In this document: positions 3,121-64,000 of the stretch, piece by piece
Layout of the letters: each line of letters opens with the position of its first letter
Numbering within the stretch: the first letter of the stretch is position 1
NCBI GenBank assembly: GCA_964493895.1
Contig: CAZBPY010000002.1
Coordinates: forward strand, 67,351 to 131,350
Direction of reading: 5' to 3'
Origin: an uncultured Candidatus Saccharibacteria bacterium
Lineage (GTDB): Bacteria > Patescibacteriota > Saccharimonadia > Saccharimonadales > JAGQNJ01
Length of the DNA stretch: 64,000 bases
The notes under the pieces: generated by a model
The model's database searches: none
Told to the model about the DNA's origin: nothing
Seen by the model: the letters and a program-made list of their open reading frames with translations, nothing else
Position numbers and translations under genes: made by a program

Positions 3121-4491
3121 CTATTCACCCTGGAAAGGCTGTTCGGAGCGGCGCTTGTCCAGGCTGCGAAAACGTTGGCGTTCTTTGTCGAAGAAAAGTT
3201 CAATAGCCCCGACCGGACCGTTACGGTGCTTTTTAATAAACAGGTCAGTTATGCCCTTTCGCTCTGATTCTGGATTGTAGTAGTCTTCACGATAGAGGAA
3301 GGCCACCACGTCAGCATCTTGCTCAATGGAGCCTGATTCACGTAAATCAGCTAGATTTGGAATCTGCGGACTGCGGTTCTCTACTGAGCGGCTTAACTGG
3401 CTAAGGGCAATCAGCGGTACGTTTAATTCTCTGGCAATCCCCTTAAGACCGCGCGATATCTCAGAAATTTCCTGGACGCGATTGCCTTCGCTCTGATAGC
3501 GCCCACCGCCGCTCATCAGCTGAAGATAGTCAACGATAATTAGGCTAATCGGGCGGCGGTGGGCTTCGCGCCGGGCCTTGGTTCGTAAGTCACTAACTGT
3601 GATGCCCGGCGTGTCATCAAAGAACATCTGGGCTTCGGACAACGTCCCCATAGCTTGGCCGATTTTTTCAAAGTCAGTGTCACTAAGGTTGCCAGTACGC
3701 AGTGACCAGGCATCGACTCCGGACTCCATGGCCAGGAGGCGGTCGACTAATTGCTCCTTACTCATTTCCAGACTGAAAAATAATACCGACTCATCAGCTT
3801 TGGTGGTAATATTGTGAGCCAAGTTCAGCGCCAAAGCCGATTTACCCATAGCAGGACGGGCAGCCAGAATAATCAAATCTGATCTCTGCAGTCCGGCCAG
3901 CATATTGTCTAGATCTCTAAAGCCAGTTGGAATGCCGCGGATCTTGTCCTTGTCTTTATGGAGTTCATCAAGTCGTTCAAAACTATCGCTCAGGATTTCT
4001 TCCAACGAAATAACGTTCTGCCCGACATAGCGTTGACTGGTTTGAAAGAGGCTGGACTCGGCCTCCTCAATTAGCTCCTGCAGGTTTTTTGTTTCATCAT
4101 AACCGAGAGTCACGATCTCTTGGCTGGACTTAATTAGTTTCCGCCGCAGAGCCTTTTGCGACACAATCCCGGCATATTGCTCAATGTGAGCTGCCGTCGG
4201 CACGTAGTTTGTTAATTCGCTCAAATATGACGGACCGCCAACCATATCAATAAGGCCATTGGCTTTCAGTTGGTCAGTCAGAGTTAGGACATCAATCGGA
4301 CTGTGCTTATCGTAAAGTTGCTTGATACCTTCAAAAATACGTTGGTGCCGCTCATCATAAAAGTCATCTGCACTTAAAGCATCAGCAATCTTAACAATGG
4401 CATCGCTGTCGATTAGAATGGCGCCAAGCAGACTGGCTTCGGCGTCGGTGTTCTGCGGCGGTATGCGGCTGGGGTGAGTTTTGTCGTCCAT
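3121..4491 (-). CDS. dnaB: replicative DNA helicase DnaB
   Basis: 456-aa ORF with an N-terminal DnaB domain (PPQNTDAEASLLGAIL), Walker A ARPAMGKSA and RecA-like C-terminal motifs. Confidence 0.95.
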   Translation of the reverse strand: MDDKTHPSRIPPQNTDAEASLLGAILIDSDAIVKIADALSADDFYDERHQRIFEGIKQLYDKHSPIDVLTLTDQLKANGLIDMVGGPSYLSELTNYVPTAAHIEQYAGIVSQKALRRKLIKSSQEIVTLGYDETKNLQELIEEAESSLFQTSQRYVGQNVISLEEILSDSFERLDELHKDKDKIRGIPTGFRDLDNMLAGLQRSDLIILAARPAMGKSALALNLAHNITTKADESVLFFSLEMSKEQLVDRLLAMESGVDAWSLRTGNLSDTDFEKIGQAMGTLSEAQMFFDDTPGITVSDLRTKARREAHRRPISLIIVDYLQLMSGGGRYQSEGNRVQEISEISRGLKGIARELNVPLIALSQLSRSVENRSPQIPNLADLRESGSIEQDADVVAFLYREDYYNPESERKGITDLFIKKHRNGPVGAIELFFDKERQRFRSLDKRRSEQPFQGE

Positions 4492-7705: not shown

Positions 7706-7908
7706 TGTTCCTCCTTGATTATTAGCATCGACCTAGTTGTTAACGTACTTCGCGCCTAAAAAAGTCCCTGGACGAGCCAAGGACGAAGAGAAACTACAAA
7801 TTACTTTGTAATAACCTCGGCGACATGATTAAGCCTAGATTGCTCTTCGGCCGTCGCTGTCTTTGGCGAATACCCTGTTATTTTATATTGAATTCAGATC
7901 GAGGTCAA
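7706..7908 (-). promoter_or_regulatory. rplJ promoter and structured leader with attenuator-like hairpin
   Basis: TTGACC-15nt-TATAAA lies at 7908..7882. The leader contains CCTTGG-ctcgt-CCAGGG followed by acTTTTTT (7782..7758). An L10-leader role is inferred from position only. Confidence 0.35.
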
Positions 7909-23651: not shown

Positions 23652-24680
23652 CTACTTTCTTAGGCCGACGGCTGTTTGGACCCGCCTGAGGGTTTTATCA
23701 GCAACTTCATTCATCGACGACTCAGATTGCTTTAATTTTTGCCGAAGCTTGGCTTCATCAACTTTGGCTAATCGACTTTGAAAGTCATTTAAGAAGTTTT
23801 TAACAACCTCGGCCACCTCTTGTTTGAAGGGCCCATATTGGGTTTGACCCTGGTATTTTTGTTTGACAGCTCCTAGATCTTCGTCTGACAAAGCAGCATA
23901 AATATCCATCAGATTGCTAATTCCAGGTTGTTTTACATGATCATAATTGATTTTTCCAAGACTATCAGTTGTGGCTGCCATAATTTTCTTGGCCGCTACA
24001 TCGGGCTCATCACCAAGGAAAATTACGCCTTTACCAGAGGCGTCTGATTTGCTCATCTTTTTGGTTGGCTCTAACAAATCTTTAATTCTTATTCGCTGTT
24101 GTTGAGCAGTGAAGGCGATTTGTTCTTTCTCGGCCTCTGGCGGGCTCAGCAAGTTCTCACCAAACTTATTATTTAGCCGAATGGCAATGTCACGAGCCAG
24201 TTCGACATGTTGGGTCTGATCAGCACCTACCGGCACATATTTAGCTCCGTAAAGCAAGATGTCAGCCGCCATAAGCACCGGATAATCAAACAGTCCAACT
24301 GAGACCGATTCTTGCTGATCAGCCTTCTCTTTAAACTGGGTCTGACGCGACAATTCTCCCATATAGGTAAAGCAGTTTAGAATCACTGTCAGCTCGCTAT
24401 GGGCTGGAATTCGGCTCTGACGATAAATGTAGGTGCTGTTATCATCAAGATCTAAGCCAGGTGCCACAAACAGCTTTAAATTATGCATGATCTGGTCATG
24501 CAACTTGCTGTGATCAACCGGTGTTGTAAAGCTATGCAAATCTGGCACAAACAAATTAATCTGATACTGACCAGCGTATTGTCGCTGCAGCTGAACAATT
24601 GGCAGCAAAGCCCCTAGGTAATTACCGAGATGCAAATCATTGTTGGCTCTCAAGCCAGTTAAAATCACCGGTTGGCTCAT
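23652..24680 (-). CDS. trpS: tryptophan--tRNA ligase
   Basis: HIGH-type HLGNYLG and KMSKS motifs. ATG 24680 is preferred because GAGGAG lies 5 nt upstream; the ORF-track start is 24692. Confidence 0.92.
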   Translation of the reverse strand: MSQPVILTGLRANNDLHLGNYLGALLPIVQLQRQYAGQYQINLFVPDLHSFTTPVDHSKLHDQIMHNLKLFVAPGLDLDDNSTYIYRQSRIPAHSELTVILNCFTYMGELSRQTQFKEKADQQESVSVGLFDYPVLMAADILLYGAKYVPVGADQTQHVELARDIAIRLNNKFGENLLSPPEAEKEQIAFTAQQQRIRIKDLLEPTKKMSKSDASGKGVIFLGDEPDVAAKKIMAATTDSLGKINYDHVKQPGISNLMDIYAALSDEDLGAVKQKYQGQTQYGPFKQEVAEVVKNFLNDFQSRLAKVDEAKLRQKLKQSESSMNEVADKTLRRVQTAVGLRK

Positions 24681-24698
24681 ATTACTCCTCATTATATC

Positions 24699-25559
24699 TC
24701 ATTGAGCCTGTGCCTCATACGGTATCTGTCCGGCTGGGTATGAACCTAATATCTGCACCTTGCATCCAGTGGCTTTAATTTTGTCTAAAACCTGTTTGGT
24801 TCTATCCTCAGACAAGCCAGCATGAAACTCGACAAAGAATTCATTATGAAAAGGGCTGTTTGGAATAATGGCAGATTGTAAATCAGTCAAAGTAATTCTA
24901 GCTTCTTTAAACGGAGTTAGTATGTCCACTAAAGCGCCAGCCTTCTCCCCAGTAGTCATAACCACTGAGGTTTTATTAGCCTCTGAGATAACCGGTACTT
25001 CACCGTTCCGCAGCTTGACTTCTACAAAACGAGTAATATTATTCTGGTCATCCTGGATTGACTGTGCTAATGGCTCTAATCCGTACAGTTGACCAGCTCG
25101 CTCACTGGCAATCGCTACCATACGAGGATCAGCAGTTTCAGCAACTAGCTTGGCACTGCCAGCAGTGTCATGCTCAATTATTGGATGAGCCTGCGGCAAT
25201 TGTGTTTCCAAAAATACAGTACACTGATCAAGCGCTTCTGACTGCGAATGCACCTCTGTTATATCAGTTAGCTTGGCATTGGGAAGCCCGAGTAGGGCAT
25301 GGTTGACTGGCAAATAAGCCTCGCCTACAATTGTCAAATTGCTGCCGCTTGATCTGATCGGATCATAGACCGGCCCGATAAAACCGATGCGGTTATTGGC
25401 TATAGCCATGATGGCTGATTCAATTTCTTCATTGTGCAGAGCTTTTAAAGTATCTGAAAATGTCTCGTAATAATGCAGATTGGCATTAGGGTGCACAGAC
25501 AGCGCTACCTCTTCAGTATAGGAACCGGGCTGACCCTGTATTCCAATGATAGTTGACAT
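24699..25559 (-). CDS. pheA: prephenate dehydratase (PDT + ACT domains)
   Basis: 286-aa ORF with GQPGSYTEE, NITRF and a C-terminal ACT-like domain. Confidence 0.82.
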   Translation of the reverse strand: MSTIIGIQGQPGSYTEEVALSVHPNANLHYYETFSDTLKALHNEEIESAIMAIANNRIGFIGPVYDPIRSSGSNLTIVGEAYLPVNHALLGLPNAKLTDITEVHSQSEALDQCTVFLETQLPQAHPIIEHDTAGSAKLVAETADPRMVAIASERAGQLYGLEPLAQSIQDDQNNITRFVEVKLRNGEVPVISEANKTSVVMTTGEKAGALVDILTPFKEARITLTDLQSAIIPNSPFHNEFFVEFHAGLSEDRTKQVLDKIKATGCKVQILGSYPAGQIPYEAQAQ

Positions 25560-25580
25560 ATTTATCCTTTCTAGGCATTT

Positions 25581-25603
25581 AAAAAACCGCCTGGTGGCGG
25601 TTT
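25581..25603 (-). terminator. rho-independent terminator/attenuator 22 nt upstream of pheA
   Basis: Minus strand reads AAACCGCC-acca-GGCGGTTT followed by further Ts (6 T in total). Confidence 0.65.
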
Positions 25604-25634
25604 CTTCTCTTAATCAATATTAATTAGTCCGCCA

Positions 25635-25685
25635 CTAGTTGGTGCCGGTAAACCAAAAGGCTGAGTTTTGGTTTAATCTAATCAT
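25635..25685 (-). CDS. 16-aa leader peptide MIRLNQNSAFWFTGTN (Phe-Trp-Phe regulatory codons)
   Basis: The ATG lies 9 nt after the -10. The codons TTT TGG TTT form the 3' arm of a 9-bp hairpin, and the TAG stop abuts the antiterminator arm GTGGCGG. Confidence 0.45.
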   Translation of the reverse strand: MIRLNQNSAFWFTGTN

Positions 25686-25694
25686 AACTTTAAG

Positions 25695-25723
25695 ACAATA
25701 CACCCTATGGCTGCTTATGTCAA
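25695..25723 (-). promoter_or_regulatory. promoter of the pheA-trpS leader
   Basis: TTGACA-17nt-TATTGT, beginning 15 nt after the rpsI stop. Confidence 0.45.
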
Positions 25724-25738
25724 TGGGAAAATAAGAGG

Positions 25739-54960: not shown

Positions 54961-55641
54961 TTAGAAATGTTCAGCAGTTTTAAGAAAGGGTGCTTGGCCT
55001 TCCAAGGCGATTAAAAAGTCACTTACTGATACGTCGCCATAACGAATCATTTCCAGTGACTTACTGCCGAATTCAACCGGCTCCACCCGGCTGCGTGGTT
55101 TCGGTCGTAAGCCTAAAGACTCGAACCACTCATTTGTTCGAGTAGACTCCTTGTAGGCATCTAACATAACTTCAGATCTGAGATCATAATCACTTGTCGC
55201 AGCGTAAAGCATAGCGCTGCCAATACCCTGCTGCGGAACAGTAGTGGCAACTTCATCGATATAGCATCTGTCTGCGCCCAAAATCCGCCAACGTCTGGGT
55301 AATGGACTGGCTTGAACAACGCCAACTCGTTCTTGACCTAGGTCGTCAACTAATTCTTCATAGGCCAGCCAATATGATGATGTACCTTGGGCGATTTGCT
55401 CGTTCATTCGTTTGGTCCTATGGCGAATGCTGGCAAAATCACTTATTAACCCTCTGGTAATATCTGCCTGTTTCACAAGTCCTTGTCTGCCGACAAATTC
55501 GCGCCTGTAAGCACTCCGGATAATGTTCGTAATGTGCTCCGCGGTGCGACGTCTTGACCTTTGGACTCTCTCAACGACTACAGCATCGCCATTCCACCTC
55601 TCAAATCTATAGGCGTTAGGTTTCTCGATGCTATCAGCCAT
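54961..55641 (-). CDS. GNAT-family N-acetyltransferase-like protein
   Basis: 226-aa ORF with a motif-A-like YIDEVATTVPQQGIGSAMLYAA and a C-terminal NEWFESLGL. Confidence 0.6.
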   Translation of the reverse strand: MADSIEKPNAYRFERWNGDAVVVERVQRSRRRTAEHITNIIRSAYRREFVGRQGLVKQADITRGLISDFASIRHRTKRMNEQIAQGTSSYWLAYEELVDDLGQERVGVVQASPLPRRWRILGADRCYIDEVATTVPQQGIGSAMLYAATSDYDLRSEVMLDAYKESTRTNEWFESLGLRPKPRSRVEPVEFGSKSLEMIRYGDVSVSDFLIALEGQAPFLKTAEHF

Positions 55642-55703
55642 TAATAATCTCCTCGTTATCGGGACATATAATGTTCTATAATATCATAGTCTATGAGTCA
55701 ATA

Positions 55704-56300
55704 TTAACGGCTGGTGATAACCTTGTCGACAAGACCGTAGTCTTTGGCTTCTTCGGCGGTCATCCAGCGGTCGCGCTCCATGTCATCATGGATTTTAGCC
55801 TTTTTCTGGCCGGTATTGTTGACCATAATATCTTCGATTAAGCCCTTGATACGCAAGGCCTCCTTGAGATCGATTTCTTGATCGGTAACTTTTCCGCGGG
55901 TGCCACTCGAAGGCTGATGTATCATGACGGTCGAATTCTTAAGCAAAAACCGCTTGCCCTTTGTGCCAGAACTTAGCAATATGGCCGCCGCACTGGCTTG
56001 AACACCAATGCCGACTGTTTCAATATCACACTTGACGAATTGCATGGTGTCATAAATCGCTAATGCGTCATAAACACTGCCGCCGGGGCTATTAATGTAG
56101 AGCTTGATGTCTTTTTTGGGGTCTTCAGCCTCTAAAAACAGTAGCTGGGCGACAATTAAGTTAGCAGTGTGTTCATCAACCGGCGTACCAAGAAAAATAA
56201 TGCGCTCTTTTAACAGACGTGAATAGATGTCATAAGCCCGCTCCATGCGGCCTTCAGTTTCAATAACTGTTGGAACAAGAATATTGGATGGTTTGCTCAT
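55704..56300 (-). CDS. clpP: ATP-dependent Clp protease proteolytic subunit
   Basis: The start is moved to ATG 56300 ([38 protein letters not shown]), 7 nt after TATAAT. Confidence 0.93.
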
Positions 56301-56307
56301 GTTTAGC

Positions 56308-56336
56308 ATTATAAGCCACCAATTAGCACTCGTCAA
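56308..56336 (-). promoter_or_regulatory. clpP promoter (leaderless-type)
   Basis: TTGACG-17nt-TATAAT-7nt-ATG. The -35 sits in the CIRCE spacer. Confidence 0.5.
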
Positions 56337-56349
56337 GTGAGAGTGCTAA
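56323..56349. promoter_or_regulatory. CIRCE element (HrcA operator), perfect consensus
   Basis: TTAGCACTC-gtcaagtga-GAGTGCTAA equals the published consensus TTAGCACTC-N9-GAGTGCTAA with 0 mismatches. Confidence 0.85.
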
Positions 56350-56717
56350 TTATGAAGTCCGAATACCTGAGATTCTAGGTCTCGCGACTGGTTTTCCTGA
56401 CGATTTCGCTGCCACATATTAGCAAGTCGGGCTCCGGCCCAGAATGCACCCAGGAGCACGCCGCCGGCAACCCCTGCAGCGCCAAATGAGATCAGTTCTT
56501 CAGAGTAAACTGACCAATCAAATAATTGAACATCAGCTAGCATTTGTGGACCACCCTGTGGTAGATGAACCGTAACCTCCTCAACCCGGCCAGCCCACAA
56601 TGCGGCAGCCCCAAGCCCGCCAACAATCACTGCCGGCTTCCCGGTTATCCCATCAATTATTCGATTATTTTCTTCGTAGCGCTGGGGAATGGTTTGTTCT
56701 AATTGTTCAACTGCCAT
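56346..56717 (-). CDS. Gly/Ala-rich 2-TM membrane protein (P124) between tig and clpP
   Basis: ATG 56717 has AGGTGA SD. The hydrophobic segments are AVIVGGLGAAALWAG and FGAAGVAGGVLLGAFWAGA. Confidence 0.6.
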   Translation of the reverse strand: MAVEQLEQTIPQRYEENNRIIDGITGKPAVIVGGLGAAALWAGRVEEVTVHLPQGGPQMLADVQLFDWSVYSEELISFGAAGVAGGVLLGAFWAGARLANMWQRNRQENQSRDLESQVFGLHN

Positions 56718-56769
56718 CACTTCACCTGCCTTTCAACAAGCACAAATTACCATAAAAGAGTGCCGCTGT

Positions 56770-58053
56770 CTATTTTGTGGCGTATTCCACCAATTTCTGA
56801 ATGGTTTTTTCAGTCAGCATGCGGCTGGCAATGTCTCGTTGAGCCTCCGGCTTGTCCAGCTCGGCCTGCATAGCAGCATCCTGATACTGGCTCCTCAACA
56901 TTTGCATTCGCATCTCAAGTTCATCCGGGCTAACTTCCAGTCCTTCCTTATCAGCAATTTCAGCCAGCACCAGTCCAGCGCGTACCCGTTGTTCAGCTTC
57001 GGGGATTAGGATTTCTTGGCGATACTCTTCCTCTGTTTTATCTTCACGCTTTAGAAACTCCTCAAAGGTTAGACCGCGGTAAACCAGGTTTTGGCGCAGC
57101 TCATTCATCAGTCGCTCGACCTGATCGTTAATCATCACCTCTGGAACAGTCAGCTTACTCTTAGCCGCCACCTCTTTTATAACCTCACCTTCGAGGTTCT
57201 GCATAGCTTGGCTCTGTCGCTCTCGACTCAATTCGGCCTTGATATTGTCGCGCAGCTCCTTAACAGTCTTAAACGGTCCAGCCTGAGTTGCAAATTTATC
57301 ATCCACTTCGGGTAAGGTTTGCTCCTCGACTTTCTTAACCTTAACTGTGAAGGTAACTTTTGAACCGGCTAAAGCTTTGACCCCATAATCTTTGGGGAAG
57401 GTTAGGCTGAAGGTTTTCTCCTGGCCGGCTTTTACGCCAATCAGATTCTTTTCAAAGCCGGGTATAAACTGATCACTGCCCAGCACCAAGGGATAGTCCT
57501 TGCCCTCCGCGCCGTTGATAACTTTGCCGTCAGCGTCGACACCTTTGAAGTCAATCTCAACTTTGTCGCCGCTGGCCGCAGTTCGCTTTACGGATTTACT
57601 GCTCGCCAATCTCTGCTGCAGACTCCTGACCACATCATCTACATCTTTGTCCTTAACCGACACTTTAGGCAGTGTCTTCTTGATTTTCTTATAGTCTGCC
57701 AGCTTGATCTCACCAAGCACTTCAACTTCGGCGCTAAATTCCAAATTGGTAAACGGCACAAATTTTTTCAGTGTTACTTTCGGATTGTCTACCGGCCGCA
57801 ACTTTTCCTGATTCACAGCATCGGTGTACAGGTGATTGATGGCATCCTCGACGACATCAGCCTGCAATCGCTGCTGGTCAATATTTTTCTCGACTACGTT
57901 AAGCGGTGCTTTGCCTTCGCGAAAGCCCTGAACTTTGACCTCCTTGGCCAGTTTCTCTAGAACATGGTTTTTATACTCAGCCAGCTGGTCCTCGCCAGCA
58001 GTGATAGTCAGCTCAACCTTATTGTCAGATAGATTTTTCCGAGTTATATGCAT
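56770..58053 (-). CDS. tig: trigger factor
   Basis: 427-aa ORF with a three-domain trigger-factor layout, including an FKBP-like middle region (GDKVEIDFKGVDADGKVINGAEGKDYPLVLGSDQFIPGFE). Confidence 0.93.
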   Translation of the reverse strand: MHITRKNLSDNKVELTITAGEDQLAEYKNHVLEKLAKEVKVQGFREGKAPLNVVEKNIDQQRLQADVVEDAINHLYTDAVNQEKLRPVDNPKVTLKKFVPFTNLEFSAEVEVLGEIKLADYKKIKKTLPKVSVKDKDVDDVVRSLQQRLASSKSVKRTAASGDKVEIDFKGVDADGKVINGAEGKDYPLVLGSDQFIPGFEKNLIGVKAGQEKTFSLTFPKDYGVKALAGSKVTFTVKVKKVEEQTLPEVDDKFATQAGPFKTVKELRDNIKAELSRERQSQAMQNLEGEVIKEVAAKSKLTVPEVMINDQVERLMNELRQNLVYRGLTFEEFLKREDKTEEEYRQEILIPEAEQRVRAGLVLAEIADKEGLEVSPDELEMRMQMLRSQYQDAAMQAELDKPEAQRDIASRMLTEKTIQKLVEYATK

Positions 58054-58061
58054 AGGCGGCT

Positions 58062-58070
58062 ATTGTAACA
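58062..58070 (-). promoter_or_regulatory. extended -10 promoter TGtTACAAT 8 nt upstream of tig ATG (leaderless-type)
   Basis: Minus strand reads TGtTACAAT-agccgcct-ATG with no SD. Confidence 0.45.
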
Positions 58071-58114
58071 GAGTTCACCTCTGAAATCTAGTTGTTGCCA
58101 GCCGGGTGAGCGCC

Positions 58115-58813
58115 TTAGGTTACCAAAGATATGGCTACACCGGCGCTAAGACCAACTCCGGCTCCGACATTGCAAACTCGGTCTTGCCCACGTCTAATGG
58201 AGTCATAGATTGGTTCTTCTTGCTCGAGAACCTCTAGAGTATTGGCCAACGAGGGACTGTCTGGACTGGTTAAAGGCAGCTGCGATGTTCTAAACAATGC
58301 AACACGCTTACCAATAGAAGATGATGCTAGTGCGGTTAGATCTAGAACCAATCCACCTGCTACCATAACTTCGAACCCATTATCCAATATCGAATCGTGT
58401 TCACCGTGTTGACTAATTACAATACCAAGCCCAAATCTTGACATAATTCCTCCTAGGAACGGGGGGAAATGCCCGTCGACGACGCTTTGAGCCACGGTCA
58501 TCGCTTGAGACGCCCTATGCCTTCTTTCTTGAGCTAAAAAACTTGCAACCACTCCAGTTGAGCCATTGGCGGCATCTAGTATGCGTTCAACTGAGCTTGT
58601 ATATTCACTAGCATAATCCATCCGTGTTTCAGCTAATGACTCCCTCCTTTCTGACTGTCGATTGGCAAAGCGGGCCTTTGAAACCAAATCTATAGGTGAT
58701 CCGAAGTATGGCCTTAGGTCGTTTGTGTATCTTTCTCTAGGCTGCCAAAGGCCACGCTCGGTCTTGTATATCGCATCATTGATTTCAGGGCTGAGGCTAG
58801 CCGTTCTGAACAT
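58115..58813 (-). CDS. hypothetical protein (P232), Gly/Ala-rich hydrophobic C-terminus
   Basis: 232-aa ORF between hisS and tig. I recognise no family. Confidence 0.6.
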   Translation of the reverse strand: MFRTASLSPEINDAIYKTERGLWQPRERYTNDLRPYFGSPIDLVSKARFANRQSERRESLAETRMDYASEYTSSVERILDAANGSTGVVASFLAQERRHRASQAMTVAQSVVDGHFPPFLGGIMSRFGLGIVISQHGEHDSILDNGFEVMVAGGLVLDLTALASSSIGKRVALFRTSQLPLTSPDSPSLANTLEVLEQEEPIYDSIRRGQDRVCNVGAGVGLSAGVAISLVT

Positions 58814-58848
58814 ATAAAAATACTACTCCAACCCAGAAAGATATACAA

Positions 58849-60069
58849 TTACTGCAGAGGGATTAGCGACTGCTTGCCTGTCTCCAGATCCTTAACCTTC
58901 AATTGGCCCGACTTCAGTTCTTCTTCGCCAATCACAACCAATTTTTTGATGCCTTTTTTCTCGGCAGTTTTGATTTTCTTGTCCAGTTTTCGTCCCGAGA
59001 AATCTACAGCGACATTCTGGCCTTGGCTTCGAAGTTTTTGAGCTATTTCTTGAGCTCCCTCAGCGGCTTCACCAATAACAGCCACATATATATCAGTTTC
59101 CGTCTCAAGTTCCGCCAATAGTCCATTGCTCTTTAGAAAGTTGACTAATGTAGCATCGCCCATGCCAAAACCAACTGTCGCCACAGGTTCGACCCCAAAC
59201 TCACCGATCAAGCCATCATAGCGGCCGCCACCGAACATCGAACGATTGTTTTCCGGATTGGCGTCAAACACTTCAAACACGATATCTGTGTAGTACTCGA
59301 ACCCCCGAGCCAAATACCGATTAAAGCGCACATTCGTAACACCTTGTTGTTTTAGCTGCTCAATTACCGTTTGAGCCTCTTTCGGCACAGCCTCATCAGC
59401 CAGGAAGTCTAAAAGACGGGCGGCTTTGGCTCTCCCAAGTAAATCATCGAAGAGCTTTTCCCACTCATTCGATTCAACCTTTTCCTTCTTGTCGATTAAG
59501 CCCATAGCCCTTATGCGAGTTGCTTTATCCAGATCCATATCGTCGAAAACCTCTTCAAATAATTTTCGGCTGTTAATCTGGATCTCATATTGATCTGGTT
59601 TGGCCGCAAAAGCCCGCATGACGCTATCAGCCAGCAAAATTATCTCGACATCGCCTTCAATGCCTTCGATGCCAAACAAGTCAGCATTAAGCTGCCAAAA
59701 CTCTCGTGTCCGCCCACGCTGAGGCCGTTCATACCGAAAACAGTTTGGGATACTGAAAAGGCGCAGGGGATAACTAAGCTCTTGGCGCCGAGCCGCCACC
59801 ATCCGTGACACCGACGGCGTCATCTCTGGCCGCATGACTACTTTGCGACCGCCGCGATCGGTGAACGAATAGGTTTGCTCGTTAACGATTTCTTCAGATG
59901 TCTTGGCGGTGTAAAGCTCTAGTGGCTCTAAAACCGGGGCGTCATACTCCTCATACCCAAATGACTGACAAACACGGCGCCAAGTCTCAAAAATCCAATT
60001 GCGCAGGCGCATGTCTTCAGGATAGTAATCCCGAGTACCCTTATATGGTTGTGTTGAAAGTTTACTCAT
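58849..60069 (-). CDS. hisS: histidine--tRNA ligase
   Basis: 406-aa class II aaRS with RPEMTPSVSR, FGGGRYDGL and a C-terminal anticodon-binding domain. ATGA overlap with the upstream gene. Confidence 0.94.
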   Translation of the reverse strand: MSKLSTQPYKGTRDYYPEDMRLRNWIFETWRRVCQSFGYEEYDAPVLEPLELYTAKTSEEIVNEQTYSFTDRGGRKVVMRPEMTPSVSRMVAARRQELSYPLRLFSIPNCFRYERPQRGRTREFWQLNADLFGIEGIEGDVEIILLADSVMRAFAAKPDQYEIQINSRKLFEEVFDDMDLDKATRIRAMGLIDKKEKVESNEWEKLFDDLLGRAKAARLLDFLADEAVPKEAQTVIEQLKQQGVTNVRFNRYLARGFEYYTDIVFEVFDANPENNRSMFGGGRYDGLIGEFGVEPVATVGFGMGDATLVNFLKSNGLLAELETETDIYVAVIGEAAEGAQEIAQKLRSQGQNVAVDFSGRKLDKKIKTAEKKGIKKLVVIGEEELKSGQLKVKDLETGKQSLIPLQ

Positions 60070-60782
60070 TCAGTTCTTTCCTTTCTTAATAGTGTAGCGT
60101 AATACTCCGTTAATGTAGAGCCTATGAAAATCGGTACGATTTCTCCCTTGAGATTAGCCTGTTTTACATCCTCCTTTGAAAGAGGCTTGAACGGCTTCCA
60201 GGTCTGTGACCTAAATCTGGTCTTCTCATCCCATGTCACACGTCGAGCAAACCGATATATCTGCACTGTGGGCGTATTTGCTTTGATAGTGCCCTGCCTC
60301 ATAGACTTAATTTCTTCATACCAATATTCGGCATTGTCCAGCGGATCGCCAATGCTGATCTCCACCGACAAAGCGTTTGGACAATGTTTGTTGATGCAAT
60401 CATAGGTGGCTTCAATGCAGTCTGCCAGACCAAACTGTTTACAAACCTGGAATAGCAGAGGCTTGCATGCCACGCCCACAAACGCTGAATTATTGTTCGG
60501 CGTCAAAGTATTGTGGAAATCCAGCACCAAGTCATAGTCGTCACATAACCTTGCTAATCGTTGGGCTCGCTCGGATTCATAGCTACCTAAATTAGATTGG
60601 TTAAAACTTCGATTTAAGTCAGTTTCAACGAAGCGCCTATTAGCATGAACTGCCCGAGGATTGCCAATCACAGCATCAACACCCTTGATAGGCTGCTTTT
60701 TAAGGAGCTTGACTAGATCTACGCCAAGTCTTTCGTTGCCGTGCATGCCACCAATGACCAGGATGCGTTTCGGCATCATCAT
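60066..60782 (-). CDS. succinylglutamate desuccinylase/aspartoacylase (AstE/AspA, M14-like) family hydrolase
   Basis: 238-aa ORF with ILVIGGMHGNERLGV, NPRAVHANRRFVETDLNRSF and DFHNT, the zinc-ligand pattern of the family. Confidence 0.78.
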   Translation of the reverse strand: MMMPKRILVIGGMHGNERLGVDLVKLLKKQPIKGVDAVIGNPRAVHANRRFVETDLNRSFNQSNLGSYESERAQRLARLCDDYDLVLDFHNTLTPNNNSAFVGVACKPLLFQVCKQFGLADCIEATYDCINKHCPNALSVEISIGDPLDNAEYWYEEIKSMRQGTIKANTPTVQIYRFARRVTWDEKTRFRSQTWKPFKPLSKEDVKQANLKGEIVPIFIGSTLTEYYATLLRKERTE

Positions 60783-61498
60783 TATCGACCTCCGCCCGGC
60801 CTCACCACCAGCAATGTTCGTCTATCAGGGATGGTCGGCAGCTCGTAGCCATGATTTTTAAGCCTGTCGTTAACAATGCTCGTCCCGGCTCGCTGGCTAC
60901 CAATCCAAACACTGGTGGTGCTGCCTTTGTCACGCAGTGTCGAGGCCACGATGCCCTCGGCGAGCGTCCTAGTAGCTATAACAGTATCGCCACCATAAAA
61001 CTGACTAATCCGATCAAGCGTCTGCCCTCGGTCTCTTAAATTGCCGGTTGGAATGCGGTCTCGATTAGCAAACGTATCTTCGATCCAAGCAAACTCGGCT
61101 GGCAGTATTCCTTTAAGTACAGGAGCCATAGCAGGTTGGTCCTGATACTTGCGAGTCCAAAGCTCATCCGGATTGGTTGGTCTTACCAGTGTTGCTCTTT
61201 GCGGGTATTCTCCGTCAAAGGCCACTTCCAATAGTGCTCCTTGGCCGACAATTTGGCTACGCCAAGTGTCTACTAGTTTGGTCTCGCTATAGGCTTCACA
61301 AAGTGGCTGGCCACATTCAATACACATGCAACCTGGCTGGTCAGGTGTAAACTCGACTTGGCAATCACTATACCCACAGCGGCTAACTTCAAACCAGGGC
61401 GATCCTGCAAAAGCTACCTTATAGGTCTGGGCCAGTTCTGGTCCGATCGCATCAATTCTTTCGGCATTATTTGCCGAAATAAGTTCAATTCGGTTCAT
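60782..61498 (-). CDS. GNAT-like protein with inserted Cys-rich (zinc-ribbon-like) segment
   Basis: 238-aa ORF with a RimI-like N-terminal motif AFAGSPWFE, the insert CGYSDCQVEFTPDQPGCMCIECGQPLC, and a TAATG overlap with the AstE-like gene. The fold call is tentative. Confidence 0.55.
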   Translation of the reverse strand: MNRIELISANNAERIDAIGPELAQTYKVAFAGSPWFEVSRCGYSDCQVEFTPDQPGCMCIECGQPLCEAYSETKLVDTWRSQIVGQGALLEVAFDGEYPQRATLVRPTNPDELWTRKYQDQPAMAPVLKGILPAEFAWIEDTFANRDRIPTGNLRDRGQTLDRISQFYGGDTVIATRTLAEGIVASTLRDKGSTTSVWIGSQRAGTSIVNDRLKNHGYELPTIPDRRTLLVVRPGGGR

Positions 61499-61524
61499 TT
61501 CATTCTCCTAAAATTTAAGTAAGC

Positions 61525-61557
61525 AAAACAAAAGCGCCGGAGTGATCCTGGCGCTTT
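61525..61557 (-). terminator. rho-independent terminator/attenuator upstream of the GNAT-AstE-hisS operon
   Basis: Minus strand reads AAAGCGCC-N11-GGCGCTTT followed by TGTTTTG. It also looks terminator-like on the plus strand. Confidence 0.6.
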
Positions 61558-61583
61558 GTTTGTCTTTTTAGGACAAAAGGAAA

Positions 61584-61643
61584 CTAACCGATCACCTCCG
61601 GCAACAGATGTACATGGTGTTGGTTAGAGCGAAAATATTTCAT
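61584..61643 (-). CDS. 19-aa leader peptide MKYFRSNQHHVHLLPEVIG (His regulatory codons)
   Basis: The ATG lies 9 nt after TGtTATAAT. It has three His codons in four positions, and its 3' end forms the antiterminator arm. Confidence 0.5.
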   Translation of the reverse strand: MKYFRSNQHHVHLLPEVIG

Positions 61644-61652
61644 AGTCATTGT

Positions 61653-61681
61653 ATTATAACATACTCTGTCAATAGAGTCAA
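61653..61681 (-). promoter_or_regulatory. promoter of the hisS-operon leader
   Basis: TTGACT-17nt-TATAAT with TGt (extended -10). The -35 abuts the tRNA-Leu 3' end. Confidence 0.5.
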
Positions 61682-61766
61682 TGGTGCGGATGAAAGGACT
61701 CGAACCTTCACGCCCTGAGGCACTAGTTCCTAAGACTAGCGTGTCTACCAGTTCCACCACATCCGC
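61682..61766 (-). tRNA. trnL: tRNA-Leu (anticodon TAG), long variable arm
   Basis: The reverse complement is GCGGATGTGGTGGAACTGGTAGACACGCTAGTCTTAGGAACTAGTGCCTCAGGGCGTGAAGGTTCGAGTCCTTTCATCCGCACCA. Confidence 0.9.
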
Positions 61767-61811
61767 GTGCTTTGATTTTAACCTGTTTTCCCCTGGTTGC
61801 CTAGAGTTATT

Positions 61812-62195
61812 TTAGAAGTCCAACCGACTTTTCAGGCTAGTGATATTGCTGCTTAGGCGGCTGGTTTCCAATTCGACGCTATCCAGTCTGTCAAAGACGG
61901 TGTCAAAATGACCGCTAACCTCATTAAAGCCCATGCCAATTCTTTGTTCTAGGGCATCAAAACGCGGGTCAATCCGCTCAGTTATGATTTCGTCTACCAC
62001 TTTTCGCACCATAGCCGGTACTTTGTAGTCAAAGGCCTTATCCATGATTCCAGGGACTTTTCGATCGAGGGCTTCATCAATCATGGTCGGTACTTTTCGG
62101 TCAATCGCTTCATCAACCATAATGGGTACTTTTCTATCAAGGGCCTCGTCGACAACAGACTGGATGGCTTTAAGATCGGCTTTGGTTAGGCTCAT
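61812..62195 (-). CDS. hypothetical protein with four 12-aa DEAxDRKVP repeats and coiled-coil-like C-terminus (P134)
   Basis: The ORF-track start is TTG at 62216, and ATG 62195 (MSLTKADL) is the alternative. The start is uncertain. Confidence 0.6.
   Translation of the reverse strand: MSLTKADLKAIQSVVDEALDRKVPIMVDEAIDRKVPTMIDEALDRKVPGIMDKAFDYKVPAMVRKVVDEIITERIDPRFDALEQRIGMGFNEVSGHFDTVFDRLDSVELETSRLSSNITSLKSRLDF
62017..62160 (-). repeat. 4 tandem imperfect 36-bp in-frame repeats inside P134
   Basis: Units start at 62017, 62053, 62089 and 62125 (plus strand GGTACTTTTCGGTCAATCGCTTCATCAACCATAATG-like) and encode VDEALDRKVPIM-type units. Confidence 0.8.
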
Positions 62196-62219
62196 GCCCT
62201 TAAGTATACGCTGCAAATA

Positions 62220-62750
62220 TTAAATAGTTCTGAAAAAAATTAGCTTTATATCGCCGTAATCATTAACTTTTATCAAATCTAGCCCATCGAACGACGGTGG
62301 TTCTTCCGAGCCTGGCCACGATAGCACAAAGGTGCCGCTGGCTCGCACATGACGAACCAACTTCTTAAGAATATTGGGGCGGATATCGTTATAGGGCGGA
62401 TCGGCTATGACCACATCAAATTCTAGTTCTGAATTATTATCCGACCAGGTGCTAACGTTGGCCCTGGTGGCTTTAACTTGCTCTTCGAGGCCAAGTATCT
62501 CGATGTTGCGTTTGATAGTTCGGTAAGCCAGAACCGATTTCTCTACTGTGGTAGCCTGATTGGCACCACGGCTGACGGCTTCAAAAGCCAAAGCTCCGCT
62601 GCCACCGTAGGCGTCCAAAACAGTCAAATCGGTCATGTCACCTAAAGTATTAAACAATGCACCGCGGGCCTTTTCACTCATAGGGTGTGACCTATGGCCA
62701 GACGGACTCTTGAACTGACGGCCGCGCAAGCGGCCCGCAATGATTCTCAT
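62220..62750 (-). CDS. rsmD: 16S rRNA (guanine966-N2)-methyltransferase RsmD
   Basis: The start is moved to ATG 62750 (MRIIAGRLRGRQFKSP), an ATGA overlap with the upstream stop. Motifs: LDAYGGSGALAFEAVSRGA and DPPYN. Confidence 0.85.
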   Translation of the reverse strand: MRIIAGRLRGRQFKSPSGHRSHPMSEKARGALFNTLGDMTDLTVLDAYGGSGALAFEAVSRGANQATTVEKSVLAYRTIKRNIEILGLEEQVKATRANVSTWSDNNSELEFDVVIADPPYNDIRPNILKKLVRHVRASGTFVLSWPGSEEPPSFDGLDLIKVNDYGDIKLIFFRTI

Positions 62751-63568
62751 GAGTCTATTGTAACTAATTCGGCTTCGACCAGGGCTAGGTACCAGATCAA
62801 AGTTACAGTTTGAGCAATTGTCGGGCACAATTTGTGGCGAGTATCGTAAATTAGTTTGGTGCTCCAGCCGCGCTTTAAATAGCGTTCGTACATGTCCAGC
62901 ACAGCAATTTCGCGGGCAGCTCGGCGAAAAATTTCTAACGGACCCAACTCTTTGGCTTCTTCAAGCCGATCAGGCGTGGGAATGGCATCATTTAGGCTAA
63001 GTGGCTTTAATATTGAAGCCACTCCCATTTCAAATAATAAATGGGTGCTTAAGAGGCCGCGGGCACCGATGTACTTCCAGGTCTTTTTGGCTCGTTCGCG
63101 ACGGGTTTGACCTGGCGGTACCATCTTTTTCAGCCGCGTATCGCGGTCAAGGTTGCGAGACTGCCACAACTCTTCAACTTTTTGTTCATATGGATAATGG
63201 TGAGCCGGGGTCAAGCCATCGACAATGGCATGCGCCAGCCAAGCGGCTTCAAAAGCTGTGCGTTCAGGGTCTCCCTCTTTTAATTCCGTTACTAGACTGT
63301 CGAAATGACTTTGGATTAGGTAGATGATCTGGGAATCATTCTTATCAAACGGACTGTAATAGTGCCAAGGTTCATCCTTGGACGGACTTTTCAGCTTGAT
63401 AGCATCCGGCCCTTTGTGTCCCTCGAACTGTAAGATGCGTGAAGCTTTTGGAAAAGGCACGTCATCACCTAAAATTTTGGCTAGATGCGCCCGGGCAACG
63501 CGGTCAAATTTCTGGTGCGCGCCCATAACACGACCTGAGACTTTAGTAAGTGAAGTTCCTGAATACAT
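62747..63568 (-). CDS. hypothetical protein, possibly zinc-dependent phospholipase C / P1-nuclease superfamily
   Basis: 273-aa ORF in which WHYYSPF and AAWLAHAIVDGLTPAHH resemble the SHFYDP and LHYLGDxxxPxH motifs of that superfamily. An alternative start is ATG 63526. Confidence 0.5.
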   Translation of the reverse strand: MYSGTSLTKVSGRVMGAHQKFDRVARAHLAKILGDDVPFPKASRILQFEGHKGPDAIKLKSPSKDEPWHYYSPFDKNDSQIIYLIQSHFDSLVTELKEGDPERTAFEAAWLAHAIVDGLTPAHHYPYEQKVEELWQSRNLDRDTRLKKMVPPGQTRRERAKKTWKYIGARGLLSTHLLFEMGVASILKPLSLNDAIPTPDRLEEAKELGPLEIFRRAAREIAVLDMYERYLKRGWSTKLIYDTRHKLCPTIAQTVTLIWYLALVEAELVTIDS

Positions 63569-63590
63569 GATTGGTTGGCTTTTTGGGAAG

Positions 63591-64000
63591 CTAATTCAAA
63601 TGAACGATTTTCTGCAATGTTTGTATACGTTCTTTCAGTCGAGGATATTGTAGCAGATGTCGGTCTTTTTTGATAGTCAAAGCTGCCGCCTGTCGGGCCT
63701 GTTTGATTAGCTTTGTATCTGTTAAATTAGCCATTCTAAGGTCCAATGCACCGTGTTGAGCTGTGCCGTAAATCGCGCCGGGACCGCGAATTTCTAAGTC
63801 CAATTCAGCCAGTCGGAAACCATCATTGTTCTGTTCGATGGCCCGCAGGCGGCGGCTGGGCGGCTGGTCATCAGACAGCAGCAAATAGCAGTGGCCCTGG
63901 TGTTCGCCGCGACCCACTCGCCCCCTTAATTGGTGGATCTGAGCTAATCCAAATCTCTCTGGTGCCTCAATGCACATCATGGTAGCGTTGGGTACATCAA
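63591..64000 (-). CDS. recG: ATP-dependent DNA helicase RecG, C-terminal part (5' end beyond window)
   Basis: The frame stays open to the window edge (...DVPNATMMCIEAPERFGLAQIHQLRGRVGRG). Confidence 0.88.
   Translation of the reverse strand, partial: DVPNATMMCIEAPERFGLAQIHQLRGRVGRGEHQGHCYLLLSDDQPPSRRLRAIEQNNDGFRLAELDLEIRGPGAIYGTAQHGALDLRMANLTDTKLIKQARQAAALTIKKDRHLLQYPRLKERIQTLQKIVHLN

Follow-up and report, generated by a model that had tools for sequence, protein, structure and literature searches.

Leader-peptide attenuators such as those of the his (hisL), trp and pheST operons combine a short open reading frame (ORF) holding codons for the cognate amino acid, a terminator before the first gene, and an antiterminator that excludes the terminator fold, with its 5′ strand within or beside the leader ORF, the position of the ribosome picking the fold. 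In pheST this logic is applied to an aminoacyl-tRNA synthetase (aaRS) operon. Here we describe an element that shares this layout and is predicted to work in the same way, on the minus strand of a 64,000-nt stretch of DNA from an uncultured Candidatus Saccharibacteria bacterium (GCA_964493895.1, contig CAZBPY010000002.1, positions 67,351 to 131,350; the whole stretch is called the window below). It precedes a three-gene operon consisting of ORF1, ORF2 and hisS, the last encoding histidyl-tRNA synthetase. Judging from conservation among relatives and from predicted folds, the element is probably a ribosome-mediated (leader-peptide) transcription attenuator responding to charged tRNA-His, and the operon is most likely switched on when charged tRNA-His is low. 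Compared with the his, trp and pheST systems, the antiterminator arm of the window element lies within the last five leader codons and a 1:2 protector is not general; the leader has no Shine-Dalgarno (SD) sequence and is predicted to be leaderless, and its targets are not biosynthetic. The element resembles these leaders neither in sequence nor by covariance model: the Rfam family His_leader (RF00514) gave no match in the window at the gathering threshold, nor in 61400..61800 at E up to 10.

Histidine leaders have also been predicted elsewhere. His leader peptides were predicted upstream of a hisS paralogue and of hisZ in the Bacillus cereus group (Naville and Gautheret, 2010; PMC2965389), and His attenuators were found before his operons in Peptostreptococcaceae and Erysipelotrichales (PMC9413887). 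Like the window element they are non-proteobacterial His-codon attenuators, one of them before a gene of the histidyl-tRNA synthetase family; going by their descriptions, they differ in belonging to another phylum and in having 3-5 consecutive His codons. The Firmicutes attenuators are, in addition, unrelated to hisR and found where HisR is absent (PMC9413887). In Actinobacteria, polycysteine leaderless small ORFs (sORFs) are reported for mycobacteria (bioRxiv 10.1101/834739) and leaderless leader peptides for the transcriptomes of Corynebacterium and Streptomyces. The likeness lies in a sensor ORF without SD at the 5′ end whose amino-acid codons control a downstream operon, and the difference in the amino acid, the phylum, and the terminator/antiterminator switch of the window element.

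Since the his/trp/pheST logic, the predicted His leaders and the Actinobacterial leaderless sORFs precede it, the attenuation mechanism itself is not new. The sequence family of the element, its placement in the 3′ end of hisR in relatives, the leaderless mini-ORFs that match the HisR tail, and the conserved targets appear to be undescribed; a full-text search of one literature library returned no paper combining Patescibacteria, attenuation and leader peptide. To our knowledge, gene regulation in Patescibacteria (Candidate Phyla Radiation, CPR) is largely unexplored. The element offers a widespread, testable case of classical ribosome-coupled attenuation in this group, and would imply leaderless translation and close transcription-translation coupling there.

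The leader element

The promoter, mini-ORF, His codons, arm pairing, terminator and AGGAG that a preliminary description had proposed from the window were all found where it had placed them. In the order of transcription the features are:

61682..61766, minus: tRNA-Leu(UAG) with encoded CCA (ARAGORN; Rfam tRNA, 58.3 bits)
61653..61681, minus: sigma-70-type promoter, with TTGACT at 61681..61676, a 17-nt spacer and the extended -10 TGtTATAAT ending at 61653
61584..61643, minus: leader ORF MKYFRSNQHHVHLLPEVIG, 19 codons followed by TAG (61586..61584); homologous in-frame ORFs occur in relatives
61622..61627, minus: CUAACC, candidate 5′ strand of a protector hairpin with GGUUAG (61589..61584, last codon and stop), from the fold
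61608..61619, minus: regulatory His codons CAC 61619, CAT 61616, (GTA) and CAT 61610, which are codons -11, -10 and -8 counted from the stop
61590..61602, minus: antiterminator 5′ arm GCCGGAGGTGATC, as RNA GCCGGAG-G-GUGAUC, leader codons -6 to -2, from fold and covariation
61560..61576, minus: spacer hairpin UUGUC-N7-GACAA between leader stop and terminator, from the predicted fold
61536..61547, minus: antiterminator 3′ partner GATCACTCCGGC, as RNA GAUCACUCCGGC, from fold, duplex test and covariation
61524..61557, minus: intrinsic terminator, AAAGCGCC (61557..61550), an 11-nt loop, GGCGCTTT (61538..61531; RNA GGCGCUUU), then TGTTTTG (UGUUUUG)
61496..61509, minus: AGGAG Shine-Dalgarno sequence (61509..61505) and the ATG of ORF1 at 61498

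The -35 hexamer begins at the base directly after tRNA-Leu(UAG), the tRNA ending at 61682 and TTGACT starting at 61681, which bears out the adjacency noted earlier. With 11 of 12 consensus positions and a TG before the -10, this promoter holds the joint top score in a scan of 55000..64000; one other site reaches 11/12, without the TG. The leader ATG (61643..61641) lies 9 nt past the -10 and is not preceded by an SD sequence, so that the 5′ untranslated region (UTR) is predicted to be 0-3 nt; an additional in-frame ATG is present at 61649. The arm at 61602..61590 is complementary to 61547..61536 over 12 bp with one bulge, and this partner comprises the terminator loop and the first bases of the terminator 3′ arm. 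A consensus scan of the 27 nt between terminator and ORF1 found no promoter-like site, which speaks against a separate operon promoter, a concern raised in the preliminary description.

The alternative folds proposed earlier were recovered by RNAfold. The full-length leader folds with the terminator present (-38.2 kcal/mol), and a 92-nt core from which the 5′ part is omitted takes up the proposed antiterminator (-28.5 kcal/mol, z = -2.6). A protector hairpin pairing CUAACC (61627..61622) with GGUUAG (61589..61584), plus CACC:GGUG, is part of the minimum free energy (MFE) structure of the window leader. It also occurs in the MFE structures of 10 short-leader relatives, with compensatory CUAUCC/GGAUAG in one of them (L010). 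When sought in all leader classes it was missing from the hisR-tail and GCCUCG classes. Conceivably, it could serve as a trp-like 1:2 protector when the leader is untranslated. The spacer hairpin UUGUC-N7-GACAA caps the antiterminator fold, and its sequence is not kept in relatives; in the predicted fold it might act as a pause element.

His accounts for 1.86% of residues in the long ORFs of the window. At this background the probability of at least three His in 19 residues is 0.005, and that of three His within four positions of a random 19-mer is about 4e-4. A chance origin of the cluster is unlikely, the decisive evidence being its conservation in relatives.

Conservation and covariation in relatives

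A protein search with ORF1 returned 42 homologues (40-63% identity), one of them named Candidatus Microsaccharimonas, and a scan of a genome collection gave a single distant match, a Patescibacteria metagenome-assembled genome (MAG). About 55 loci were assembled from the contigs of the protein search and from a metagenome scan with the ORF1 alignment. The same element was found upstream of ORF1 homologues in about 35 non-redundant Patescibacterial loci, although the flanking protein is just 24-63% identical across them. Its order is a His cluster (HHxH, xHxH or HxxH), two variable codons, the arm (GCCGGAGnnnnUCGG, GCCAGCnCGUGCUG or GCCUCGnnUGGUCGG), the stop and the terminator. The distance from stop to U-tract is 42-55 nt, and 38 nt in locus L031. 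Each relative has a hairpin directly before the U-tract whose loop and 3′ arm are complementary to its own arm. Many relatives carry the His cluster and arm at the C-terminal end of a protein of about 109 residues (…GYQAALxxIxxHHxHIxPARAE before the stop), which is the histidine repressor HisR discussed below. The retention of His codons, stop, terminator and alternative pairing in about 35 loci upholds the His-codon attenuator first proposed from the window.

In a MAFFT alignment of 29 leaders (A2), the 39 nt from the His cluster through the stop are free of gaps, and the stop codon falls in one column in 27 of the 29. The first antiterminator helix, H1 (columns 24-30 : 99-105), is paired in 92.1% of cells, with 40 cells changed on both sides, a number reached in none of 500 shuffles; controls in which the helix was slid were 27-49% paired. 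For the terminator (columns 86-92 : 100-106), which RNAalifold predicts independently, the corresponding values are 97% and 42 double changes, again with 0/500 shuffles. Covariation of columns 100-102 involves both 5′ partners: with column 27, for instance, the pairs are GC/AU/UG, and with column 90 they are GC/AU/CG. Such dual covariation marks two alternative structures that are both under selection.

The second antiterminator helix, H2, joins the 3′ half of the arm to the terminator loop, and every per-locus duplex contains it. A column-based score was not feasible for H2, its bulge being on one strand in some classes and on the other strand in others, with a shifting MAFFT register; per-sequence duplexes with a permutation test were therefore used. 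In this alignment-free test, the last 27 nt of each ORF were paired with the terminator of the same locus by RNAduplex. The mean energy was -23.8 kcal/mol for cognate pairs, -15.1 for non-cognate terminators and -11.3 for shuffled arms; none of 20,000 permutations had a mean as low as the cognate one (p <= 5e-5). Compensatory changes, which the preliminary description had named as a check, were thus found in both the antiterminator helix H1 and the terminator, and the permutation test agrees. A 3-bp hairpin within the arm (columns 26-28 : 35-37), also returned by RNAalifold, is probably a by-product, since an arm complementary to a hairpin is partly self-complementary.

Translation and predicted leaderless layout

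At least two His occur within codons -11 to -8 in every aligned leader. By position, His is found at codon -11 in 18, at -10 in 23 and at -8 in 26 of 27 aligned leaders, codon -9 being variable. Both CAT and CAC occur at codons -11 and -10. The arm corresponds to codons -6 to -2 and is preceded by the His codons at distances of 5, 11 and 14 nt, a geometry that is conserved. Of 16 short-ORF loci, 15 have an extended -10 (TGnTAnAAT) 6-10 nt before an in-frame ATG that has no SD sequence, from which the mRNA is predicted to be leaderless or to carry a 2-3 nt UTR; the leaderless upstream ORF suggested earlier for the window alone thereby gains support from relatives.

Locus L031 (2346..2429) separates the two roles of this region. 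An in-frame TAG immediately past HHSHM closes its hisR six codons early, and the arm sequence CCAGCTCGTGCT is kept, untranslated, past the early stop. The arm is therefore constrained as RNA, and the His codons as translated codons.

The His codon at -8 (window 61610..61608; A2 columns 16-18) is CAT in 26 of the 26 leaders that have His there, whereas CAT and CAC are about equally used in the window genes (123:120). Slower wobble decoding of CAU, or an RNA contact, is a possibility.

Proposed mechanism

Transcription would start no more than about 3 nt from the AUG at 61643, giving a leaderless message for the leader ORF, and leaderless initiation would load the lead ribosome as the 5′ AUG emerges, close behind RNA polymerase. 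When His-tRNA(His) is plentiful, the ribosome would proceed to the UAG at 61586 and cover the last five codons (arm, 61602..61590). With the stop in the A site it would cover roughly 15 nt upstream, which is the whole arm (codons -6 to -2); because the arm is inside the last five codons, the terminating ribosome itself would mask it. The terminator (61557..61531 and the U-tract) would then fold, and transcription would end 27 nt before ORF1. When His-tRNA(His) is scarce, the His codons (61619..61608) would hold the ribosome 5-14 nt short of the arm; awaiting His-tRNA at codon -11 or -10, it would end 2-5 nt before the arm. The free arm would capture the terminator loop and 3′ arm (61547..61536), preventing the terminator and allowing read-through into ORF1, ORF2 and hisS. 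The short, constant distance from stop to terminator would fit a polymerase just ahead of the lead ribosome. We infer the transcription start, leaderless translation, the coupling of transcription to translation, and the direction and size of the response.

Several points weigh against this reading. It is built on sequence conservation and predicted folds, and translation is assumed for an ORF with no SD and a predicted UTR of 0-3 nt. The His codons number merely two to three and are interspersed, compared with seven in a row in enterobacterial hisL. A stall at His -8 lies 5 nt before the arm, and it is uncertain whether it would free H1, which depends on the reach of the mRNA channel; from ribosome helicase geometry and the spacers of frameshift sites, a 5-nt spacer is the lower limit for the mRNA entry channel. 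Stalls at -11 and -10 alone clearly leave H1 free. A trp-like anti-antiterminator (1:2 pairing) is found in a subset of leaders, and the others would default to read-through when untranslated. Finally, hisS is outside the operon in many relatives.

Alternative explanations

It is improbable that the terminated transcript of roughly 120 nt, or its peptide, acts in trans, besides or instead of attenuation in cis. Such a product would be in keeping with the strong promoter and, about 120 nt away, a terminator that looks efficient, and rnTrpL/peTrpL of Sinorhizobium is a reported precedent (PMC6614838, PMC7298713). However, no data point to a target, the element always stands directly upstream of His-linked genes, and in many relatives it forms the end of a 330-nt hisR mRNA and not a small RNA.

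Sensing by the nascent peptide is a still weaker candidate and one we consider very unlikely. In this case free histidine or a metal would make HxH[LI]xP[ER]x[VI]G in the exit tunnel stall the ribosome, TnaC-like, at or close to the stop. The C-terminal peptide is indeed strongly conserved in short leaders and HisR tails, with His -8 invariant. The conservation of P-E/A-R-x-G is nevertheless explained at the RNA level, as these codons are the arm, which covaries with the terminator. The residues also vary by class (PEVIG, PRLVG, PARAE), following the arm sequence, and L031 keeps the arm although translation stops after HHSHM. An arrest at the stop would moreover favour termination, so that free His would simply repress, with the same outcome as under attenuation by charged tRNA-His.

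We give similarly little credence to a trans-acting factor, either uncharged tRNA-His in a T-box-like manner or an RNA-binding protein, that picks the fold while the ORF is incidental. T-boxes are the usual regulators of aaRS genes in many Gram-positives (PMC2965389), where uncharged tRNA induces them through antiterminator/terminator competition as well, and the His codons could in principle serve as specifiers. Unlike T-box riboswitches, the window element is far shorter (about 100 nt), has no specifier-loop architecture and depends on a reading frame. The T-box family (RF00230) gave no match in the window at the gathering threshold or in 61400..61800 at E up to 10, and the element matches no other Rfam family either, even with E raised to 10. 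In every case the His codons share their frame with a transcript-start ATG or with hisR, and the stop is at a fixed distance; an RNA that binds a factor would need neither.

It is hardly credible that the hairpin is a plain tRNA-Leu (or hisR) terminator, with a fortuitous mini-ORF and pairing and an operon transcribed from elsewhere: it is the first terminator past tRNA-Leu and, in hisR-type relatives, directly follows a real gene, but the element is kept where no tRNA lies upstream (L002, L009-L011, L053-L057), the 11/12 extended -10 promoter stands between tRNA and terminator with none promoter-like after it, and arm and terminator covary (permutation p <= 5e-5).

Relation to the histidine repressor HisR

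The tail-bearing protein of the relatives belongs to the TrpR-related YerC/YecD family (TIGR02531, 63 bits against a cut-off of 42), and its best solved relative is PDB 3G1C from Eubacterium eligens. YerC and 3G1C have been identified as HisR, a histidine repressor for which histidine was confirmed as co-repressor; the operator consensus is cacTTTAnnnnnnTAAAgtg, a motif borne out in vitro by tests with R. gnavus HisR (Ashniev et al., 2022; PMC9413887). By TIGR02531, by 3G1C and by an operator in its own promoter, the ORF of the relatives is orthologous to HisR. Promoters of the form TTGACA-N5/6-cACTTTA-N6-TAAAGTg precede hisR in all 15 loci whose start could be identified (L001, L006, L017, L023, L029-L033, L037, L043, L047, L049, L058 and L059). 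In these roughly 40 nt upstream of hisR the box stands between the TTGACA -35 and the start codon, its TAAAGT acts as the -10, and the ATG follows 6-7 nt on. The position of the operator in hisR's own promoter suggests autoregulation, and the hisR mRNAs of Patescibacteria are predicted to be leaderless.

In HisR proteins of known structure the chain stops about 10 residues past the GY motif, whereas the Patescibacterial HisR adds an HHxHxxPARAE tail, the proposed sensor. A search with the L006 protein gave 100 HisR-like clusters; of these, 95 have at least two His in the last 14 residues and 91 end in HH.H[LI].PARA[ED]; the ends of those without the tail resemble the HisR proteins of known structure.

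Two hisR-tail loci were picked independently of ORF1. L059 (4464..5515) has the hisR-tail terminator and arm before a short HisG (170 aa) and a LOG-like gene, and L058 (1569..3610) has them before a 454-aa GNAT-CntK_N fusion and an M15/VanY peptidase. CntK, after which the Pfam domain CntK_N is named, is a histidine racemase. The element thus keeps His-linked company: hisS in the window operon, and hisR, hisG and a gene with a CntK_N domain in relatives. The earlier suggestion of an attenuation regulon for aaRS genes in place of T-boxes was too narrow, as the element also precedes hisG and GNAT-CntK_N; its other part stands, no T-box having been found in the window.

The window itself differs from the HisR regulon. 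No hisR was found in its 64 kb (tblastn E above 4), no HisR box at its leader promoter, and no hisR remnants upstream of the short leaders or across the window. The leader peptide matches the C-terminal tail of the relatives' HisR, which amends the preliminary description. An inverted repeat in the spacer of the leader promoter (ACTCT-ATTGAC-AGAGT, 61663..61678, minus strand) is unlike the HisR box, and a different factor might use it as its operator; at the equivalent place L002 has a different palindrome, TTGCATTAGCAA.

A joint reading of these observations is tentative, and we hold it as a serious possibility, short of an even chance: a leaderless, full-length hisR with a HisR operator would double as the leader ORF of an attenuator sensing His-tRNA, an undescribed class. 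HisR would respond to free histidine at the promoter, and the final 12 codons of its gene to charged tRNA-His at the terminator. The window mini-ORF would be a candidate relic whose hisR body was lost and whose tail was kept for cis-regulation. If so, a leader peptide would have arisen through gene decay; the finding that the sensor codons of an attenuator coincide with the C-terminus of the pathway's own repressor gene bears on the origins of leader peptides. The pair of ORF1 and ORF2, in turn, would mark a pathway linked to histidine, which might turn over or salvage N-acyl-histidine in organisms that cannot make histidine. As far as we know, Patescibacteria are usually thought to have no His biosynthesis.

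The closest parallel to such an arrangement is the pyrE attenuator of Escherichia coli, where the full-length upstream rph ORF serves as leader and UTP is sensed through polymerase speed. In hisR-type relatives, too, translation of the end of the upstream gene would decide an intercistronic terminator. The pyrE system differs in having no regulatory codons, whereas amino-acid codons would do the sensing here, and the window ORF is a true mini-ORF.

The downstream operon

The operon consists of three genes, each later start overlapping the preceding stop:

60782..61498, minus: ORF1, 238 aa, GNAT-like fold with a four-Cys insertion (AlphaFold model and Foldseek)
60066..60782, minus: ORF2, 238 aa, AstE/AspA-family deacylase-like (Pfam PF24827, 9e-19)
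58849..60069, minus: hisS, histidyl-tRNA synthetase, 406 aa (Pfam tRNA-synt_His, 8e-43, and HGTP anticodon domain)

No Pfam or NCBIfam family was found for ORF1. Its AlphaFold model, built from 26 homologues, has a pLDDT of 95, and in a Foldseek comparison with PDB the top matches were all GNAT N-acetyltransferases, at a modest template modelling (TM) score of about 0.45-0.5. Four Cys in the insertion (C41, C46, C59 and C62) are invariant among the 42 homologues. The start of ORF2 overlaps the stop of ORF1, and its NCBIfam aspartoacylase match is under the cut-off. The hisS start overlaps ORF2 by 4 nt, and hisS is followed by a 232-aa ORF, tig and clpP.

The preliminary description had spoken of a hisS operon. 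It was right that hisS is in the operon; hisS is its third gene, however, and not its first, and the constant partners of the element are the genes for the GNAT-fold and AstE-like proteins. This pair is constant in about 55 loci, and hisS follows in a subset only. These uncharacterised genes, ORF1 (GNAT-fold, four-Cys) and ORF2 (AstE/AspA-like), are now tied to histidine, and the link provides an entry point to histidine handling in auxotrophic episymbionts.

Across Patescibacteria (L002-L057), ORF1 and ORF2 form a conserved acyltransferase-like/deacylase-like pair behind the His attenuator, often adjoining hisS. In a Candidatus Microsaccharimonas MAG (L055, 1364..1500) hisS precedes ORF1 and a GC-rich hairpin lies between them; no His leader was found between hisS and ORF1, and no AstE-like gene, the DNA upstream of hisS being outside the fetched region.

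A tRNA-Leu(UAG) directly upstream of the leader was seen in the window, in L004/L005 (L004 about 3723..3807) and in L046, and not in the others; the ORF1 identity of the tRNA-adjacent lineages L004 and L046 is 55% and 29%, respectively. In transcripts reading through from tRNA-Leu, the leader ORF would follow a long UTR and have no SD sequence.

Other regulatory features of the window

A second attenuator-like unit follows rpsI (25575..25725, minus strand). TTGACA, a 17-nt spacer and TATTGT are followed 9 nt on by an ATG (25683), which opens the ORF MIRLNQNSAFWFTGTN, closed by a stop codon and named F-W-F here; the terminator is AAACCGCC-ACCA-GGCGGUUUUUU. After the stop, GUGGCGG can pair with the terminator 5′ arm or with CCGGCAC inside the ORF, and the full fold has -35 kcal/mol (z = -4.2). 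The unit precedes a prephenate-dehydratase-like gene (24699..25559, under the NCBIfam cut-off) and trpS (23652..24692). A pattern scan of the window for further units of leaderless mini-ORF and terminator returned the His leader alone; the F-W-F unit was missed because its -10 is TATTGT.

A ribosomal protein L10 leader was identified at 7749..7884 on the minus strand, with an Rfam score of 53.5 bits against a gathering score of 44. It is the sole cis-regulatory Rfam match in the window, the other Rfam matches being tRNAs.

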